Shown here: positions 6,158 through 60,245 of the stretch, one piece after another | Layout: every line of letters begins with the position of its first letter | How positions within the stretch are numbered: the first letter of the stretch is position 1 | DNA from: an uncultured Planctomycetaceae bacterium | Lineage (GTDB): Bacteria > Planctomycetota > Planctomycetia > Planctomycetales > Planctomycetaceae | NCBI GenBank assembly: GCA_963815195.1 | Contig: CAWFGE010000001.1 | Span: 1-64,000, forward strand | DNA: 64,000 bases | Direction of reading: 5' to 3' | The notes under the pieces: model-generated | Database searches by the model: none | The model's input: only the letters and a program-made list of their open reading frames with translations | What the model was told of the DNA's origin: nothing | Translations under genes and position numbers: made by a program

Positions 6158-6349
6158 TCATCCCCGACCATCGACCCCATCGACCAGGGCCAGAATCCGC
6201 TGCTTCACCGCCTCGGAAAATCCCGGCCACGCCGCCGCCAAACGCTCGAAATCGGGGTCGTTTACGACAGTGGGTACGACAGCGCCGGGGGCATCATCGC
6301 GTAAACCCTTATCCTGATTATGGTTATACGTTTCGTCGGCTGGATTCAA
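6158..6349 (-). CDS. Small island-boundary ORF (DPDFERLAAAWPGFSEAVKQRILALV motif)
   Basis: Motif recalled from small ORFs next to att sites/integrases in planctomycete elements; abuts the tRNA fragment. Confidence 0.4.
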   Translation of the reverse strand: MNPADETYNHNQDKGLRDDAPGAVVPTVVNDPDFERLAAAWPGFSEAVKQRILALVDGVDGRG

Positions 6350-6397
6350 AATCCAGTGAGGGTAAACCTCGTGGGGGTTCGAGTCCCCCCTCCGGTA
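6340..6397 (+). tRNA. 3' half of tRNA-Leu(CAA); att-like duplication, not a full gene
   Basis: Anticodon arm CTGGA-TTCAAAA-TCCAG, long variable arm GAGG-GTAAA-CCTC, T-arm GGGGG-TTCGAGT-CCCCC, 3' acceptor strand CTCCGGTA. No D-arm or 5' acceptor strand upstream. Confidence 0.85.
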
Positions 6398-6507
6398 TTT
6401 TGCTATAAATCATTGAATTTCAATGGTTTGTGACAAATGCATTAAGCCTGTGTTCTTGGTTGGGCCAATGAAAATCACTTCATTGGGCACAAATTAGGAA
6501 CACACAA

Positions 6508-46137: not shown

Positions 46138-47019
46138 TTATTTCTGGACCAACCGCGTGGGAGCGGGGACGGGGATCCAGCCGAGGTTGATCTCGGAGGA
46201 TTCACGGCGGGGGTTTTCGGCAAGGGCCGGTTCCGACCAGGATTGGCGTTCGATCAACCGCGTGCGCTCCGGCATCGGGCGGGTGGTGATTTTGTCGTCG
46301 AGTTTCGCCAACGCGGGCGCGGCTTCGGCCTGGAACTTCACCTGCTGAACCGCGGTTCGGTGGGCCGGGGCCGGCTGGCGGCGGGCGAGAATTGCTTGGG
46401 GGATGCGAAGCTCTTCGCGGCCGCGCGTGCTCGGGTTTTCATCGAGCGTGTCCGGCATGTAGTCTCCGTCTTTGATGCCCATGTTATTGGGATTCCGCGG
46501 CTGGAACCCTTCGCCGGTGCCTTTTTTATCCTCTTCGTCGATAAACGTGCGTTGGCGAGCGCCGGCGGCATCGGGGCGAGGTTTGATGTTTGTGCCGGAT
46601 TGCGACCCCGAACTGGAAGCCAAATCGCAATTCCCGCTACTGCAATCCGTGCAACAGGACGAGTTGCTGCACGAGACGCAGGACGTGCAAGGCGAACAGC
46701 ACGCCGAGGAGGAATAGCAGCTCCGTTGCACGCCGCACGAACCGGTGGAGCAGCAGGGCGTGCAGCAGCTCGACGAGCCGGCGTAATAGGTCGTGGTGGG
46801 AACGTAAGAGGCTGTGTAGCTTGGAACGTAGGACGCTGTATAATAGCTGGAGTAGGAGGGATAATAGCTGGAGTACGGAGAGTAGTAAGAGGAATAATAC
46901 GACGGCCAGCCCCACATACTGTCATACCAACCAAAACCAAACTGGGCGGATGCCGAAGAGCAAGCCATCATCGCGGCCGCGAAGATGGGCAGCATGATTT
47001 TCAAAGTGGGATGTCTCAT
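46138..47019 (-). CDS. Secreted Tyr/Ser- and Cys-rich low-complexity protein
   Basis: RBS GAGG, signal peptide, YYSSYYSPYSSYY tract, multiple CC pairs. Confidence 0.7.
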   Translation of the reverse strand: MRHPTLKIMLPIFAAAMMACSSASAQFGFGWYDSMWGWPSYYSSYYSPYSSYYPSYSSYYTASYVPSYTASYVPTTTYYAGSSSCCTPCCSTGSCGVQRSCYSSSACCSPCTSCVSCSNSSCCTDCSSGNCDLASSSGSQSGTNIKPRPDAAGARQRTFIDEEDKKGTGEGFQPRNPNNMGIKDGDYMPDTLDENPSTRGREELRIPQAILARRQPAPAHRTAVQQVKFQAEAAPALAKLDDKITTRPMPERTRLIERQSWSEPALAENPRRESSEINLGWIPVPAPTRLVQK

Positions 47020-53405: not shown

Positions 53406-54206
53406 CTAACGCGCATCGGTTTCGGGTTTTGGTTTTTCCTTGAGCAGCAGATCATAATGCACCCGGCCCACGTGCCACATGTAATTGGGGCCGAAACCGG
53501 CATCCTGCGCCCAGGTGTTTTTCGTCGCGGCGGCGAGGTGCTTTAAGGCGGGCCCTCGGCGGTTGTGAAGCGCGTGATTGAGGCCGATGTAAAGATGGGC
53601 GTAGAACTCGCGCTTCTGGCGTTCTTCGTCCGGGATCTTCGCATCCTGGATTTGCTTTAGGATTTGGTCCGGCGTGATTTCCTCGGCGAACAACCGATAC
53701 ACATCGGGAAACGGTTCGCGGTCGTCTTTTTCATATTTGAGCAAACCCTCGCGGGCTTTTTTCAGCCCGTAGGCTTTGGTCTGCGAGAAGAACCGCCAGA
53801 TCCCGTTTTCGCGGTCCACATCGTCGAAGGTGTGATAGGTCTCAAACTGGTTCGCGGCCTGTTTGTATTTCTTGTCGTAGAAATAAGCGATCCCCCGCCG
53901 CCAGTGCGACGGGGCGATCTTGGGTTCGAGCTCGACCATCTTTTCGTAGTCCGCGACGGCTCCCGCAAAATCGCCCAGAAAGAACCGGGCATCGCCCCGC
54001 TGGGAATAGCTGGGCGTGCGGTCGGGGTCGGCTTTGATTTGGGCCGTGGTCTTTTCGATCACCTTCTGAAACTGGGATTTCAGCTCCGCGCGTCTGGCCT
54101 CGGAGAGCGGATGTTCTTCCGCCCGCGTGGAATGGGTTTGAACCAACCCCGTCAATAGAAAGACCGCGACGGGAAACAGAGGCAAGCGGATCGGCAGAGG
54201 CATCAT
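53406..54206 (-). CDS. NlpI-like TPR protein with signal-like N-terminus
   Basis: RGDARFFLGDF..AVADY, HWRRGIAYFY, D.ENGIW, FYAHLYIGL; ATGA overlap with upstream gene. Confidence 0.85.
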   Translation of the reverse strand: MMPLPIRLPLFPVAVFLLTGLVQTHSTRAEEHPLSEARRAELKSQFQKVIEKTTAQIKADPDRTPSYSQRGDARFFLGDFAGAVADYEKMVELEPKIAPSHWRRGIAYFYDKKYKQAANQFETYHTFDDVDRENGIWRFFSQTKAYGLKKAREGLLKYEKDDREPFPDVYRLFAEEITPDQILKQIQDAKIPDEERQKREFYAHLYIGLNHALHNRRGPALKHLAAATKNTWAQDAGFGPNYMWHVGRVHYDLLLKEKPKPETDAR

Positions 54207-55973
54207 CGAATATCCTTCTCGTCGGGATCGATGGGGGGATGGTTCGGCAACGGGGTCGGCGATTCGAGTTCCGGTTCCGTTTCTTCAGGTTCGTTGAGTT
54301 CGATGGTCTTGGCGTCGCTGCCGCGGCCGAGCGTGATCGTGTTCCAGTTCACCCGCAGGGTTTTCTCGGCCCGCGAAAACGCGCGGAGATACCGGCTGCG
54401 TTTGGTGGCGGGCGAGTCGTGCGGCGGGAAATGCGTGGCATCTTCGATTTCGTCCGCCGACAAAATCGCCCGCGTGCAGCCGGTCGTCTCCAATCGGCGA
54501 TAATAACCGTCCGGCGAGAGTTCGTGGTAGCGAATGTCAATTTTCTTTTTCACCGCCTGGTCGGTGTCGGCGTCGGCGTCCTGAGTCTGCTCCAAGAGAA
54601 ACCGCTTGGTGATCCAATCCAACCGGCCGACGAGCGCCCCGGGATTGGTTTCGAGCAGCGAAAGCACTTCGCCCCAACGGCTCAGGATGTCGCGGGCTTC
54701 GTCGTTGGCGTCGGGAGACTCGGCGACGAGCCGGGCGCAGGCTTCGTAATAATGCCTTTGAATGTCGAGGGCCGACCGCAGGACGCCGTCTTTGCAGCGA
54801 ACTTTCGCTTCGAGAGACGGGTCGGCACAGAAGATCCTGAGGGCCTTGATGGGGCGGGAGATCAAAGGCACCTTGGACAAATAGCCGGCTTCGAGGGCGT
54901 CCAAGGCGAGCATCGTCGTGCCCACGCGGAGGTACTCGGCTTCCTCGGCCATGTTGGAATCGCCCAAGCAGATTTGCAGCCGTTGCCGGGTGCAAGCAGC
55001 CGGGCGAACTCGCGGGGTGAAGACCAGGCCCGAAACATCAGGGCTTTGAAAAAATGCCCGATGCTGAAAATCGGCCGGTCGAACACGATCCCGTTGTATC
55101 CCAAGAGGCAATTCATGCCCCAGGCTTTGTCCGAGATTTGGAACTTTCCTTCCGCATCGACAAACCCCGCGCCGGCGAAGACGGGCGCGAAATCAGGAAT
55201 GGCACCAGATCCCGCCGGACCTGATAAAACGCCGTCGCCCGCACCAAAAAATAAAGCCCCAAGGCCAAGGGGCCGGCGGCGAGGCGGATGAATCCGAGCG
55301 CCGTGGCTTCCACCCATTCGGGCACGGGCGACGAGTAAGGCACGCGGCCGCTGAGTTCGTCTCCCAGCAAGGCCGCCTGCACGGGGCCGCGCCATTCGGC
55401 TTTCAAGAACGGCCACAAGAGCAGATACAGCACCCCCGCGACCAGCAGATATAAAATCAGCCCCAGGATCAAAACCAAATGCCCCAGCCACGCGAGCAGC
55501 ATCAGCGGAAATAACCCATAGAGCCCCCACCGCCAGAACCGCATCTGCCAGCCCGTGGCCAGGGTGAGTTCGTAGTTTTCCTGCGCCCCGTAGAGGTGGC
55601 CCCGGCTGTCGCAATCGTTTTTGATGAGCGAGAACACGCCCGGCACGTCGGCATCGCGGGCCGCTTCGGACAAAAGCAAATCCTGGGCCCGCTGATAGAG
55701 CACCGCTTCCTTGGGGCCCCGGCACTCGGGGGTGCTGCCTTCGACGAGACCGAAGCCGCCGGCAAACCGCACGCGCTCGAACCACACCGCCCCGCCGGTA
55801 TCCGTAAAAACGCCCTCCTTCAAATCGCTGGCCGGGACGGTGAGAACCCGTTGCCCCAGCGTATGAACGAGGGCGTGATAGAGTTGGTAGTCGGCGGTCT
55901 CGTCAATCTGCGGATGGTCCGGATGAAACCGGATCGCATATTCCGTCTCCAAACCGACCAGCCGATTCAGCAT
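54203..55973 (-). CDS. Pup-ligase/deamidase (PafA/Dop) family protein with inserted TM segment (two homopolymer frameshifts ~55184, ~54989)
   Basis: GLETEY, EGSTPEC, KNDCDSRG..YGAQENY, PFLISR..FAGAG, RLQI.LGDSNMAE, LDWITK, IDIRYHE, PP..SPA..R in canonical order. Confidence 0.9.
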
Positions 55974-56012: not shown

Positions 56013-56195
56013 TTACTCGCCGCCGTGCGGAACCACGACTTCGTCGAGGTAGTTTTCCGGCTGGCGGCGGCTGTCGCGTCCGATGCTGAAGAGCACCCGG
56101 CTCAGCGGGACAATTTCTTTCCAAGGCGGGGCGGGGACAACCGCCGGCGCGGCTTGAGTTTCGGGCAAAGGGGTTTGCTGGGTTTTCGTGTTCAT
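56013..56195 (-). CDS. Pup/UBact-like small modifier candidate, 60 aa, C-terminal GGE
   Basis: RBS TGAGGT before ATG; MNTKTQQTPLPETQAAPAVVPAPPWKEIVPLSRVLFSIGRDSRRQPENYLDEVVVPHGGE*; ends 39 bp before the ligase start. Confidence 0.78.
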   Translation of the reverse strand: MNTKTQQTPLPETQAAPAVVPAPPWKEIVPLSRVLFSIGRDSRRQPENYLDEVVVPHGGE

Positions 56196-56638
56196 GGTTG
56201 ACCTCAGTGATGATAAAAAAACGATCGACCGGCTTTGCCGATTTTTCCGAATCTTCTGGCCTTTGTTTATTGTAACTGCCGATTGGGGCGGAAACAACAG
56301 GCCGGATTCCCAAGTTCGCCACGAATTTTGGAGAGACATTGGTTTCGAGGCATAATCGTTGAAGTCGCCCGCGTTTCCCATTACAACGAAATTGAGGAAT
56401 CCACGGACCAGGGAATCTCCGAAAAACTTCCGTTTTCATTTTGGACACTTGGGCCGCACTCGAAAGGCGGGAAACCACGAAGCACACACCGGCTCCGCGG
56501 CAATCATCCTCTTCAGTCTAAGCCGGCACGGTCGGGCGGAAAATCCGCAGATCCTGCCGAACCAAGGTAGGCGTTTTTCCCAGAACCGTGTCTGCCGGCC
56601 GCGTTTCATCGTTCCCTTCTCGCGTTTGAGCACTTCCC

Positions 56639-57505
56639 ATGAGCGACCTGTATTGGGGCTTCGGCATCCTGGCGGTTTGGTCGGCGGCGATGTTTGCCCT
56701 GGCCCGGCGTCTCACGCGGCGCCGCGTGGGCCGGCGGCTGGAAATCCTGGCCGCGACGACGATTCTGGCCATCGGTGGTTACGTCATCTTTCTCTGGGAC
56801 CACATCTTGCTGGCGAGGCTGCTGCCGTTTTCCAATCTGATCGTGCTCGCCAACTGGTTTCCGCCGCTGTTGGGGTTTTTGGGCGGCCTGGCGTGGAACG
56901 GGATTCCGGGTTCGCGGCTGAAGAAATCCGGCTATCTCGCGGGCCTGTTCGCTCTTATGGTGTCTGCCGTTGCCAGGCCGCTGTGGGGCCGGCCGCCGGT
57001 GTGCCACGATCACTGGCAGAACGGCGTCTGCATTCAGACGTCGCCCAAGACGTGCAGTCCGGCGTGTGCCGCCACGATTTTGGCCGGAGCCGGCGTGGAA
57101 GCGAGCGAGCAGGAAATGGCCGAGATGTGCCTCACGCGCAAGGGCACGCTTTGGCAGGGACTTTATCGAGGGTTGAAACTCCAGACTGACGGGACTTCTT
57201 GGGACGTGGAAGTCTTCACCGGCGATGTGGACCGGCTTCGCGAACTCGTTTCGGAGGGTCCGGTGATTCTGACCGTCGGCTTGCCCCGCGAACCGGTCGA
57301 TGAAATCTACACCACCCGCTACGGCTGGTCGCGGGGCGAACTGCATTCGGTCGTGCTGTTCGGGTTTGGAGCCGAACGCGGAACGGAAGCGGAGCAGCGC
57401 GTGCAAATGGGAGACCCCAGCGTGTCCGGCGGCCGCGAGTCGTGGAGCGTGGAAGATCTCCGCGTTCTCTACCGGGGCCGGGGTTTGCGTCTGGTTTGCC
57501 GTTGA
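56639..57505 (+). CDS. Membrane-anchored C39-like cysteine peptidase
   Basis: About 4 N-terminal TM helices, then QTSPKTCSPACAAT, HSVVL, GDP. Confidence 0.8.
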   Translation: MSDLYWGFGILAVWSAAMFALARRLTRRRVGRRLEILAATTILAIGGYVIFLWDHILLARLLPFSNLIVLANWFPPLLGFLGGLAWNGIPGSRLKKSGYLAGLFALMVSAVARPLWGRPPVCHDHWQNGVCIQTSPKTCSPACAATILAGAGVEASEQEMAEMCLTRKGTLWQGLYRGLKLQTDGTSWDVEVFTGDVDRLRELVSEGPVILTVGLPREPVDEIYTTRYGWSRGELHSVVLFGFGAERGTEAEQRVQMGDPSVSGGRESWSVEDLRVLYRGRGLRLVCR

Positions 57506-57604: not shown

Positions 57605-57862
57605 GTGAGCGGAAGGGCGCTAGCCCCCGGCCTTTGCGATGGAGATTTGGATATTACATCGCCGGCGGCTAGCGCCGGGCCGCTCATTTTAAGTGAGCGG
57701 AAGGGCGCTAGCCCCCGGCCTTTGCGATGGAGATTTGGATATTACATCGCCGGCGGCTAGCGCCGGGCCGCTCATTTTAAGTGAGCGGAAGGGCGCTAGC
57801 CCCCGGCCTTTGCGATGGAGATTTGGATATTACATCGCCGGCGGCTAGCGCCGGGCCGCTCA
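57605..57862. repeat. Three tandem identical 88-bp palindromic REP-like units; related single copy at ~29018-29100
   Basis: GTGAGCGGAAGGGCGCTAGCCCCCGGC...GCCGGCGGCTAGCGCCGGGCCGCTCA starts at 57605, 57693, 57781. Confidence 0.95.
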
Positions 57863-57867
57863 CTTTG

Positions 57868-58059
57868 TTACCAGGGTTTCAGCTTCCAGCCGACGATGAA
57901 TCCGATGCCGAAGCACCAAAGGGCCGCGGTGCCCGGATTTTGGCGGGCATAACATTTGAGGTATTCGATGATGTCGTCCGAAGGCTGCAGGCTCTCTTTG
58001 GGAATTGAAGAAGAGGAATAGGTTTCCCGCATTTCGGGTCTCGTGCTTGTGGTATTCAT
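57868..58059 (-). CDS. Small DUF883-like tail-anchored protein
   Basis: RBS AGGAGG; YARQNPGTAALWCFGIGFIVGWKLKPW. Confidence 0.75.
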   Translation of the reverse strand: MNTTSTRPEMRETYSSSSIPKESLQPSDDIIEYLKCYARQNPGTAALWCFGIGFIVGWKLKPW

Positions 58060-58106
58060 TAAAACCTCCTGATGGGCGATCGTCAAAGGGGTTGGGTTGT
58101 TCGAGT

Positions 58107-58553
58107 TTATGAGCGCTGAGCGGGGCGGTAAGGCCGGGGGTGCTTGAGGACATGCTTGATCCATTCGAGGTTGTTGTGGAATTCCTCGCGGGAGCGTTTC
58201 AGCGCGGCCACGCCGACCCGCAGCCCTTTCCAAGCGATGAAGAACAGGATCGCGGCGAGGATCAATCCGCCCAAAGCCACGATCAGGGCCGACTCGGCGA
58301 CGGTGAGCACCGTGAGGCTGGCAATCCACCAGGACAAGCCCAACAGCGCCAGCGGGCAACTTCCAAGCACGAAGCCGACGGCCAGGACAATCAAAAACGC
58401 GGGCACGCGGGCGTGCTTCAGCGTTTCGCCGGCATCGACCGTGAGCAACTCCAATTGGAGCTCGGCGAGACTCACCAGGTCCGCGCCCAGGGATCCCAGG
58501 TTGCTGACGATGTGCGGATCGGGTGGCTCGTTTTCCCGCCGGGGCGCGTTCAT
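58107..58553 (-). CDS. Phage-holin-like (YqjE/DUF1469) membrane protein
   Basis: DLVSLAELQLELL..D, two TM helices, SREEF..NL.WIK. Confidence 0.8.
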   Translation of the reverse strand: MNAPRRENEPPDPHIVSNLGSLGADLVSLAELQLELLTVDAGETLKHARVPAFLIVLAVGFVLGSCPLALLGLSWWIASLTVLTVAESALIVALGGLILAAILFFIAWKGLRVGVAALKRSREEFHNNLEWIKHVLKHPRPYRPAQRS

Positions 58554-58774
58554 CGCTTCACCCACCATCCCAGCAGAAGGCCGGCCACCATGCCCGTTGC
58601 CAGCGTGAGTCGAGGATGATCGATGATTTGCTTGCGGAGACACGGCTCCCACCTTTCGCTGAAGGATAGATTCGTTTCACTCCCGGCCGCAAACGGGATG
58701 CCGAACGACGCGAACGGCTCGTGTCGCCGAGGGCTTGTCTCGAAGTTTTGCATCGGGCTTTGTTGTCCTTTCAT
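58550..58774 (-). CDS. Small DUF883-like protein
   Basis: IIDHPRLTLATGMVAGLLLGWWVKR; ATGA overlap. Confidence 0.7.
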   Translation of the reverse strand: MKGQQSPMQNFETSPRRHEPFASFGIPFAAGSETNLSFSERWEPCLRKQIIDHPRLTLATGMVAGLLLGWWVKR

Positions 58775-58780
58775 GTGGAT

Positions 58781-59257
58781 TTAGTGTCGCCGCCTCGGAC
58801 GGGCCGTTTCCATATCGCGGGCGGCCGGCGGAGTCGTTTGGGAGCTGCTTCCGCTCAGCGGCCCACTCTCGAAAATCTCGCCCAGTCGATTTCCCAGGTG
58901 CATCATGGCGGTTCTCAAGACCAGCGTTGTCAGAAAACCGAAGGCCCCGGCGACAAACCCGCTCTTCTCTTCTGCCTTAGGTCTCTGTTCCACGACGAGA
59001 TGGTGCCTGCGGGCCAGTTTCTCCAAAGCCTCCACGTCGGGGGCTTGGATTTCGAGCTTTCGCGGCACGACGAGGTAGCCGATCAGAGCCGCCCCCCCCA
59101 GGCAGGCCCACGGGTAGTTGCGGATATAAAAATGCCAGTCCAACAGCGTCCTGGCACTGGTTTGCACTTTGCCCAGATCTTTATCGAGTTGGCCGCGGAT
59201 GGAGTCCATCGTTTTGCGGATTTCCGCTGCTCGATCGTGTGGGCTTGGCTGACTCAC
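58781..59257 (-). CDS. YqjK/DUF3618-like membrane protein
   Basis: IRKTM..IR..L, DW..YIR.YPWACLGGAALIGYLVVP. Confidence 0.7.
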   Translation of the reverse strand: MSQPSPHDRAAEIRKTMDSIRGQLDKDLGKVQTSARTLLDWHFYIRNYPWACLGGAALIGYLVVPRKLEIQAPDVEALEKLARRHHLVVEQRPKAEEKSGFVAGAFGFLTTLVLRTAMMHLGNRLGEIFESGPLSGSSSQTTPPAARDMETARPRRRH

Positions 59258-59464
59258 GCTGTTCTCCTGACATGATTTCCGGCCGTCAGCCGAAACGCGC
59301 TAGCGTCCGGTTGTCTGCATAAACCGGGGCGAGCGCCCGGCGGCCGATCAATGCGACTTTGCAATTATCAGCCGGAACGCGCTCGCGCCCGGTTGTCTGC
59401 ATAAATTGGGGCGAGCACCGGCGGCTGATTTACGTGACAACGATTCTTCGAGCGATTTTAGATT

Positions 59465-59761
59465 TTAAGACGCAAAATGGTCCGTCCACGAAGAGGGGAC
59501 GATGCCGCGAAGGTCGCGGAGCGAATCCATCACGCGGTGGCCGAGCTGCTCGGCGAACGATTCTTTGTTCGGCAAGAGTTGGGACGGGTTTTTCATTGTG
59601 CAGGACAACAAAACGCCGGCCCCCACTCCCAGGCCGAAACCGATCAAAACCGACGCGGCGGGATGCTGTTCGATCAATCCCTCCAGCCCGGAATGGCACG
59701 GACCCTCCTCGCAAGCGCCCTGCGACGGAAACCCCCGCGTCGAATGGGACGTGGAAATCAT
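59465..59761 (-). CDS. Small DUF883-like protein
   Basis: IEQHPAASVLIGFGLGVGAGVLL. Confidence 0.6.
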   Translation of the reverse strand: MISTSHSTRGFPSQGACEEGPCHSGLEGLIEQHPAASVLIGFGLGVGAGVLLSCTMKNPSQLLPNKESFAEQLGHRVMDSLRDLRGIVPSSWTDHFAS

Positions 59762-59807
59762 GCTGCTGCTCCTTCTGGAAATCTCAGGGTTCGGGAAACG
59801 TAAGGGC

Positions 59808-60245
59808 TTACCGCTTGAGAACCAGGCCCACGATCAGCCCGGTAATCACGCCGGTGCCAAATGCCACGGCCACGGATTGCGTAGGCCGTTCGCGGATGGC
59901 GTTCTCGGCGCGGACGTAGCCGTCCTGGAAGGACTGCTGCATCTGCTCGTATTGCTGCCGGGCGGCTTCGCTATAGTGCTCGGCTTGCGCCTTAGCCTGT
60001 TTCGCGTACTCGCCCATCTTTTCCGTCGCGCTCGATGCCGACGCTGCCACGTCCCGCAGCAACTGGTCGAGTTCTTCTTCAATTTTCTGCCGGGCCTGGC
60101 CGGTTTTTTGTTGAATGGCTCCCACAAGCTGGTCGGTATTGCCGTCCATGTTGTCCAGATCATGGGGATTGAGCTGGGTCCAGCGTTCTTCGATTCGGCC
60201 GCGCAGTTGGTTCCAATGTCCGCGAATTTCTTCTTGGGTCGTCAT
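59808..60245 (-). CDS. CsbD-domain + ElaB/YqjD (DUF883) tail fusion
   Basis: GHWNQLRG.I.ERW..L..DL....G..DQLVGAIQQKTG; IRERPTQSVAVAFGTGVITG. Confidence 0.88.
   Translation of the reverse strand: MTTQEEIRGHWNQLRGRIEERWTQLNPHDLDNMDGNTDQLVGAIQQKTGQARQKIEEELDQLLRDVAASASSATEKMGEYAKQAKAQAEHYSEAARQQYEQMQQSFQDGYVRAENAIRERPTQSVAVAFGTGVITGLIVGLVLKR

Follow-up and report, generated by a model that had tools for sequence, protein, structure and literature searches.

Gene content of the locus

The window analyzed here comprises 64,000 nucleotides from an uncultured Planctomycetaceae bacterium (assembly GCA_963815195.1, contig CAWFGE010000001.1, positions 1 to 64,000). Its reverse strand carries a gene of the Pup-ligase family together with a small open reading frame (ORF) for a Pup-like tag, and the following features are referred to below.

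56013..56198, reverse strand: 61-amino-acid Pup-like tag ending in HGGE; an ORF, upstream of the ligase in 75 of 77 loci, that docks in the model
54203..55973, reverse strand: Pup-ligase-family gene (PF03136) with a predicted membrane insert; in three frames in the window copy, with intact orthologues in genomes G001 and G003
55776..55778, reverse strand: Glu66, aligned with the catalytic Asp (PafA D64, Dop D94); contacts the tag in the complex model
55209..55571, reverse strand: 121-amino-acid insert, residues 135–255, after core strand 4; from hydropathy, Dop alignment, model and relatives
55404..55529, reverse strand: uncharged hydrophobic run, residues 149–190, the predicted main membrane-embedded helix (Kyte–Doolittle hydropathy, KD, 2.85)
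55236..55319, reverse strand: second, weaker hydrophobic helix, residues 219–246, with conserved W220, E222 and R230 and invariant P235
55183..55186 (~55185), reverse strand: first one-base deletion, within a short run rich in C; probably an error of assembly
54997..55119, reverse strand: rebuilt extended loop, residues ~286–326, between the frame breaks; from alignment and model
54987..54991 (~54990), reverse strand: second one-base deletion; the extra base is present in a short-read contig of 99% identity
53406..54206, reverse strand: TPR (NlpI-like) protein overlapping the ligase stop; a neighbor at genus level only

In a Pfam profile search two separate parts of the ligase gene matched PF03136 (E = 2.6e-21 and 4.2e-52; 76.6 and 178 bits, with a gathering cut-off of 25), and the intact orthologue from the same genus is 588 amino acids long. 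Neither equivalog model was reached by an intact relative, which scored 177 bits against PafA (TIGR03686, cut-off 551) and 194 bits against Dop (TIGR03688, cut-off 492); by sequence and fold the ligase is nearer to Dop than to PafA. In its translation the motif YGAQENY occupies residues 128–134 and LVPFLISR begins at residue 256. The window genome has this single ligase-family gene; no second was found.

The first frame break falls in a gap between short-read contigs (55172–55203), and the base missing at the second is recovered from one contig of depth 2.8 covering position 54987, in a run that may be that of the source sample. One uninterrupted frame is present in 72 of 80 relatives; of the others, four are cut by contig ends and four are frameshifted. 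Among the 76 not cut, the frameshifted ones all come from one assembly series (four of its six members and none of the 70 others) and are broken at different sites. The orthologues in the same-genus genomes G001 and G003 are intact, that in G002 is broken elsewhere, and conservation continues between the breaks and beyond them. Both frameshifts are probably assembly errors, and the window's ligase copy is probably intact in the cell. A true pseudogene, to which the two breaks in the assembly and the position of the first outside short-read contig coverage might point, is very improbable given the base recovered at the second break, the conservation beyond the breaks, the intact orthologues and the confinement of broken relatives to one series.

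No conserved third gene travels with the ligase–tag pair, the largest neighbor cluster covering 12 of 81 loci. The TPR gene lies beside the ligase in three same-genus genomes (five overlapping loci) among the 106 loci tested and was rejected as a conserved part of the system. A divergently transcribed gene upstream (56639–57505, forward strand), whose membrane-protein product weakly matches Peptidase_C39_2 (E = 3.7e-5), was found at none of 106 other loci. Recurring neighbors in a second ligase subclade, described below, are mostly limited to one family, and no conserved target gene was found in the neighborhoods of either subclade. Two further regions of the window were recorded. One (57860–60245, reverse strand) encodes small CsbD/YjbJ- and ElaB/YqjD-like proteins and probable membrane proteins (one was tested, with a positive result), which we take to be a typical general-stress cluster, and the other (46138–47019, reverse strand) encodes a secreted-looking protein with Tyr/Ser-rich and Cys-rich low-complexity repeats and no NCBIfam match.

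Hydrophobic insert

The first-pass annotation of this DNA placed a membrane segment of ~110 amino acids at 55225..55545, between the two motifs of the ligase. The segment is present, although its extent is larger, at 121 amino acids (55209..55571), and encloses that range. Both hydrophobic peptides quoted in the annotation lie in the insert, with best 19-residue KD windows of 2.85 for the first stretch, in which the uncharged run is 42 residues long, and 1.78 for the second. That frameshifting had created the hydrophobic stretch was rejected, since the stretch shares the reading frame of the N-terminal motifs and is conserved; the insert lies upstream of both frame breaks.

The annotation had also stated that soluble PafA and Dop have only a short linker at this point, and this holds. 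The span between the motifs is 12–20 amino acids in all 16 soluble homologues, among them an actinobacterial Dop (above the TIGR03688 cut-off) and its PafA, whereas it is 97–130 amino acids in 91 of 91 insert-clade relatives, a sample that favors the insert because the 80 relative loci were fetched with an insert-containing query. The Dop structure 4B0R joins the flanking motifs directly, query residues 78–140 aligning with Dop 99–164 and 241–560 with Dop 158–473. A KD of at least 1.6 is reached within the span in all members of both insert subclades (74/74 and 17/17), by the second helix (219–246) in only 43 of 74, and outside the insert in only three of 63 proteins, these being the 63 of 73 rows that contain both search motifs.

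Across 132 non-redundant relatives, residues 157–186 have a mean KD of 2.25 and are 1% charged, residues 192–208 have a KD of −0.13 and are 28% charged, and residues 219–246 have a KD of 1.3 and are 9% charged. P235 is present in all 132 and R230 in 117. The flanks are basic at both ends (R148 in 125 and R253 in 122 of 132), and residues 186–200 are basic too, with 2.8 Lys/Arg.

Fold and membrane topology

Because the window copy is frame-broken, the structural work used the intact orthologue from G001, which is 92% identical over residues 1–264 and has the same numbering there. Its model (pLDDT 92.2, pTM 0.91) was superposed on PafA and Dop, a comparison that had been proposed with the annotation, and the fold proved to be intact, with Z = 43.2 and an r.m.s.d. 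of 2.1 over 372 residues for Dop and Z = 37.3 and an r.m.s.d. of 2.9 over 418 residues for PafA; the next family in the fold comparison reached Z = 20.1. The insert protrudes from this fold as a long helical hairpin, the helices of which span residues 141–153 (interfacial), 155–189 (hydrophobic), 192–208 (in the polar linker) and 219–246 (return). Folded alone, the insert gave a continuous helix at 141–189 and a return helix at 219–247. The first hydrophobic stretch, earlier considered long enough for two transmembrane helices, instead models as one continuous helix. A fold search with the insert alone returned only generic helical hairpins (best Z 7.7, none at 8 or above), matches that, for a modelled fragment, indicate a hairpin and not a relative.

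In the first two insert helices (141–153 and 157–186) the hydrophobic and the variable faces are 24 and 32 degrees apart among the 132 relatives, whereas the same angle is 110–178 degrees in six core helices. Such a shared face, read from the alignment, is the pattern that lipid-facing helices would show. For helix 157–186 the variability moment is small (0.07), and the face angle of the return helix is ambiguous (77–127 degrees). Covariation across 132 sequences is mostly phylogenetic noise; one pair, 150–243 (z 4.7), fits the base of the hairpin, weakly.

A four-span topology was considered but is not supported, as only two of the insert helices are long and hydrophobic and residues 192–208 are polar. 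From the model, two topologies remain, a tilted two-span hairpin and a long hairpin lying in the inner leaflet, and both would keep the catalytic halves on one side of the membrane. Since residues 186–200 are basic as well as the flanks, a bilayer-crossing topology is not established. The annotation had staked its proposal on three points, and on each the result agreed with it: hydrophobic helices are present, the modelled catalytic halves are not split across the membrane, and close homologues carry the insert.

Active site and substrate-contact loops

The position of the catalytic Asp is occupied by Glu in 74 of 75 and 16 of 16 members of the two insert subclades, whereas Asp is kept in 15 of the 16 soluble homologues. 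The roles of this residue (Dop D94, PafA D64) are described in the accessible parts of PMC8599861, PMC3511204, PMC12288473 and bioRxiv 10.64898/2026.04.10.717840. The β3–4 loop that follows Glu66 is longer by 7–9 residues in the alignment rows shown. The extended loop is hydrophobic, contains ~14 extra residues arranged as two short helices, and has the TRDEPHAD motif replaced; K310 within it is near-invariant. In PafA these two loops contact the protein substrate and are strictly conserved, according to the available text of bioRxiv 10.64898/2026.04.10.717840. The PafA-type combination of a catalytic Asp and a conserved extended loop (RSRPIINTRDEPHA) was not found in the insert clade, where Glu stands in 90 of 91 proteins and the loop is rebuilt.

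The metal- and ATP-binding residues E9, E11, E78, R332, D339 and W542 are kept in 131–132 of 132 relatives and R300 in 125 of 132. In the window's subclade the Dop positions H155 and H241 are Gln (75/75 and 74/75), the R227 column is Gly (71/75), and a near-invariant Lys lies four residues past that column. The second subclade mostly keeps both His residues (16/16 and 11/16) and has Lys in the R227 column (16/16). R227 and H241 hold phosphate in Dop, as stated in the accessible part of PMC8599861, and the R207A mutation nearly abolished PafA activity, as reported in that of bioRxiv 10.64898/2026.04.10.717840; K310 may take over this role. The Dop-loop is absent, the median spacing from GhExE to the acid being 57 residues, compared with 86 in Dop and 48 in PafA. 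At the discriminating positions of Table 1 in PMC7947786, a few are PafA-like (Phe for Dop I84, Ala-Thr for S101-T102) and most match neither enzyme.

Upstream tag gene

The tag ORF stops 39 bases upstream of the ligase. A similar ORF precedes the ligase in 75 of the 77 loci with enough upstream DNA, and one of the two remaining loci has a GGE-ending ORF under a looser rule; in the second subclade, ORFs ending in GGE or GAE lie upstream in 18 of the 21 loci fetched. The family consensus is L..I..DS...P..YL.ET.VP.GGE, the median length is 56 amino acids, and the last two residues are GE in 76 of 76 tags and never GQ. None of these 76 matched the Pup models (TIGR03687 and Pfam Pup) at E ≤ 0.1, compared with E = 9e-21 for an actinobacterial control, and no consistent Pfam or NCBIfam family was found among them. 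The likeness to the C-terminus of actinobacterial Pup is weak (hhalign probability 15%, E = 0.0017). Of the traits of Pup-type tags, a length in the 50–90 amino-acid range, a helical core and a G[EQ] end were all found, and groove binding was seen in the model only.

A model of the orthologous tag with its ligase scored 0.80, compared with 0.01 for the best control, although Pup–PafA and Pup–Dop complexes have already been solved, so that the score may reflect likeness to those rather than binding. The mark applied to this score was reached by 116 of 157 solved pairs and by two of 215 mismatched pairs. The runs shared at least 91% of contacts, with a partner pLDDT of 76, and the modelled interface comprises ligase residues 11, 66, 74–76, 117–129 and 460–498 and tag residues 50–61; the insert lies outside it.

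Longer tags were observed in one family (f27), in which four of the six loci examined have a GGE-ending tag of ~100–115 amino acids with a hydrophobic segment (KD 1.7–2.2), at L131:2283–2684, L134:~6180–6492, L135:6388–6726 and L136:7201–7569. The other two loci, L137 and L138, have ordinary short tags. The two long tags tested had no Pfam match, and the hydrophobic segment suggests that the long tags may themselves be membrane-bound.

Distribution and genome partners

A family search of 301 Planctomycetota genomes, which did not use the insert-biased query of the 80-locus set, gave matches in 34, of which 24 have insert-bearing ligases only, one has both kinds, eight have soluble pairs and one has fragments. 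The insert-bearing ligase is found in 25 of the 301 sampled genomes and also in Myxococcota. Named isolates with relatives are Thalassoroseus and Anatilimnocola, and the relatives fetched include Pirellulaceae and Nannocystaceae (Enhygromyxa). In a tree built without the insert columns, 37 insert-bearing proteins are fully split from 16 soluble ones (SH-aLRT 100; a quick IQ-TREE run of 53 rows with a midpoint root, no bootstrap and 20 of the 74 first-subclade rows), the clade that the annotation had proposed to look for. Myxococcota and one spirochaete fall within the insert-bearing side, and the topology is consistent with a single origin of the insert. One genome, G116 (loci L098, L128 and L130; contamination 8%), has two insert-bearing ligases and one soluble pair.

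No linked proteasome genes were found among the window ORFs or the recurring neighbors. A PF00227 search of the window genome found no 20S pair, the only match being HslV on another contig. Many insert-only genomes likewise have a single HslV-sized PF00227 match, and several, including the single-contig genomes G011 and G015, have none at all. Two full-length PF00227 matches were found in none of 38 genomes, and as these included the soluble-pair genomes the search may miss divergent subunits. A full-length ARC-like ATPase at E ≤ 1e-45, a cut that hides divergent copies, flanks the pairs in six of eight soluble-pair genomes and was found in none of 29 insert-only genomes.

That the window genome has no ARC proved to be wrong in part, as a divergent ARC-like ATPase is present in a separate operon on contig C6 of this genome (G000). 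It is common to G000, G001 and G002 only; two of the 29 insert-only genomes share it, and it was not found in the other 27. The operon (G000:C6:70256–80875; loci L153 and L160) contains this ARC/Mpa-like AAA ATPase at 73691–75400, two ThiF/E1-like genes, one above and one just below the Pfam cut-off, two small ORFs that are related to each other and end in KG or MG, and two ORFs with JAB-like His motifs, which were recognized by eye and have no Pfam match. Its gene content resembles that of a ubiquitin-like conjugation system of bacteria, with an ARC-like ATPase linked to it.

Other Planctomycetota have soluble operons (L121–L125 and L129, in G080, G090, G109, G113, G172 and G151) that encode an ARC-like ATPase, a Dop-like protein, a GG[EQ] tag and a PafA-like protein, and these are presumably of the UBact type. 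No 20S pair was detected in their genomes, three of their tags that were tested had no NCBIfam match, and their Dop-like copies have GxDxEL in place of GhExE.

Proposed mechanism and alternatives

The reading that we consider probable, with appreciable room for doubt, is a membrane-tethered, pupylation-like module that activates a Glu and attaches the tag to lysine residues in proteins close to the membrane, with a non-proteasomal outcome. In this two-gene module the ligase would be anchored at the inner membrane by its insert, and the 61-amino-acid tag would occupy the Pup groove and place its terminal Glu at the active site, as modelled. By analogy with PafA chemistry, ATP and Mg would be used to phosphorylate the γ-carboxylate of that Glu, and the tag would then be moved to a lysine of a few membrane or membrane-proximal proteins. 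A tag that already terminates in Glu does not require a deamidase. With neither Dop nor a 20S proteasome found, the mark would probably be long-lived and regulatory, or else read by membrane quality control. The first-pass annotation had likewise proposed a membrane-tethered ligase acting on membrane proteins, possibly on amine-bearing lipids, rather than on bulk proteasome substrates. Tethering, with both catalytic halves on one side, fits the present analysis; for a lipid acceptor nothing specific was found; and non-proteasomal use agrees with the genome searches, subject to the divergent ARC-like ATPase and to the 20S subunits that a PF00227 search may miss.

The departure of the active site from those of PafA and Dop counts against the membrane-tethered module, and the enzyme may instead be non-ligating. 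It could bind the tag and serve as a scaffold or sensor at the membrane, or it could be an ATPase or hydrolase that the tag stimulates. In the window's subclade, PafA and Dop are not matched at four positions involved in catalysis or phosphate binding, and the protein is nearer to Dop than to PafA. However, the substitutions are fixed and not drifting (Glu in 131 of 132, Gln in 132 and 131 of 132), the second subclade mostly keeps both His residues and has Lys in the R227 column, there is no Dop-loop, and the tag needs no deamidation; a hydrolase, moreover, would find no other ligase in the genome to make conjugates for removal. Such an enzyme is judged to be unlikely. As read from the alignment, the fixed changes would favor an enzyme that works but has a different acceptor surface, the acceptor itself not being specified by them.

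That acceptor could be a membrane lipid or a small amine at the bilayer, such as phosphatidylethanolamine or an ornithine lipid, so that the tag is lipidated. Both substrate-contact regions of PafA are rebuilt here, with a longer β3–4 loop, a change from Asp to Glu and a hydrophobic extended loop, and the searches turned up neither a conserved target gene nor Dop nor a 20S pair. According to the accessible part of PMC5952411, PafA can also use free lysine. No sign of a lipid site was seen, however, nothing found points specifically to lipids, and lipidation would be redundant at the four loci of one family where the tag has its own hydrophobic segment. We regard a lipid acceptor as distinctly unlikely. 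In eukaryotes ATG8 is lipidated, and the broader idea that the whole clade is a peptide-lipidation system, in which a membrane-embedded ligase of glutamine-synthetase fold, its acceptor site rebuilt and hydrophobic, places a GGE tag on an amine lipid or a non-protein membrane amine as an ATG8-like mark of planctomycetes and myxobacteria made by unrelated chemistry, is given the same low probability.

The tag might also mark membrane proteins for non-proteasomal removal by FtsH, HslUV or a divergent ARC-like ATPase. The precedent of PafA, the divergent ATPase of G000, G001 and G002 and the HslV-sized PF00227 match in many insert-only genomes speak for removal, but the ATPase is missing from the search results of 27 of 29 insert-only genomes and lies in a separate operon with two ThiF-family genes, and several of these genomes, the single-contig G011 and G015 among them, have no PF00227 match. 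Removal of this kind is about as improbable as a lipid acceptor.

If the membrane-tethered module is correct, these bacteria, which have an unusual membrane biology, would possess a ubiquitin-like mark reserved for the membrane. Two genes suffice for the system, which has been a prediction since 2008. The change from Asp to Glu and the rebuilt substrate loops offer specific mutants and a reason to seek a non-standard acceptor. PafA is used for proximity labelling, and the ligase may be a naturally membrane-tethered counterpart of it.

Comparison with known systems

The soluble operons of other Planctomycetota belong to the same superfamily and have a small GG[EQ] tag, but differ in having two paralogues, an adjacent ARC-like ATPase, no insert and a place on the opposite side of the tree. 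Actinobacterial PafA (TIGR03686; PDB entries 4BJR and 4B0T) shares with the present ligase the fold, GhExE and the other metal/ATP residues and the lack of a Dop-loop, and its system likewise has a partly helical tag whose GGE tail lies in the Pup groove, as modelled here. Unlike PafA, the ligase has a membrane insert, Glu for the catalytic Asp and a replaced TRDEPHAD motif; unlike the PafA system, with Pup and a 20S/ARC proteasome, its tag is unmatched by Pup models and no 20S pair was found in the genome searches. Dop (TIGR03688; PDB entries 4B0R, 7OXV–7OYH and 9CKU) is the best match in both sequence and fold, but the ligase has no Dop-loop and, in the window's subclade, is changed at the D94, H155, R227 and H241 positions. 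A single-copy paralogue of PafA and Dop with ~30% identity to both, present in some Planctomycetes, served as an outgroup in PMC7947786 and is likely to be the insert clade; the accessible part of that paper mentions neither a membrane insert nor an assay.

The closest precedent is the study of Iyer, Burroughs and Aravind (2008; PMC2588565). In Rhodopirellula and Plesiocystis these authors recognized the insert, and they suggested that the ligase is anchored on the cytoplasmic face and that proteins associated with the membrane are pupylated. The observation of a membrane-inserted ligase and most of its interpretation were already described computationally there. In the literature covered, which leaves out most subscription journals, no experiment on the insert clade was found. 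The ligases of that study, whose Rhodopirellula and Plesiocystis proteins are matched here by description only, likewise have the insert directly after core strand 4, Gln variants of the strand-4 and strand-6 motifs, an adjacent small gene ending in GE without linked proteasome genes, and a distribution in Planctomycetota and Myxococcota. A membrane-protein gene was linked to them as well; in the loci examined here none was recognized as a conserved neighbor, the C39-like membrane gene of the window being absent from 106 other loci. Four transmembrane segments were counted in 2008, whereas the present model has four helical segments of which two are long and hydrophobic; this is a difference of prediction, not of family. 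The main text of PMC2588565 contains neither the change from Asp to Glu nor the rebuilt substrate loops nor the second subclade, although the alignments of that study may already display the residue changes. Together with the anatomy of the insert and the docked tag, these three are the additions of this work, which make the 2008 prediction easier to test.
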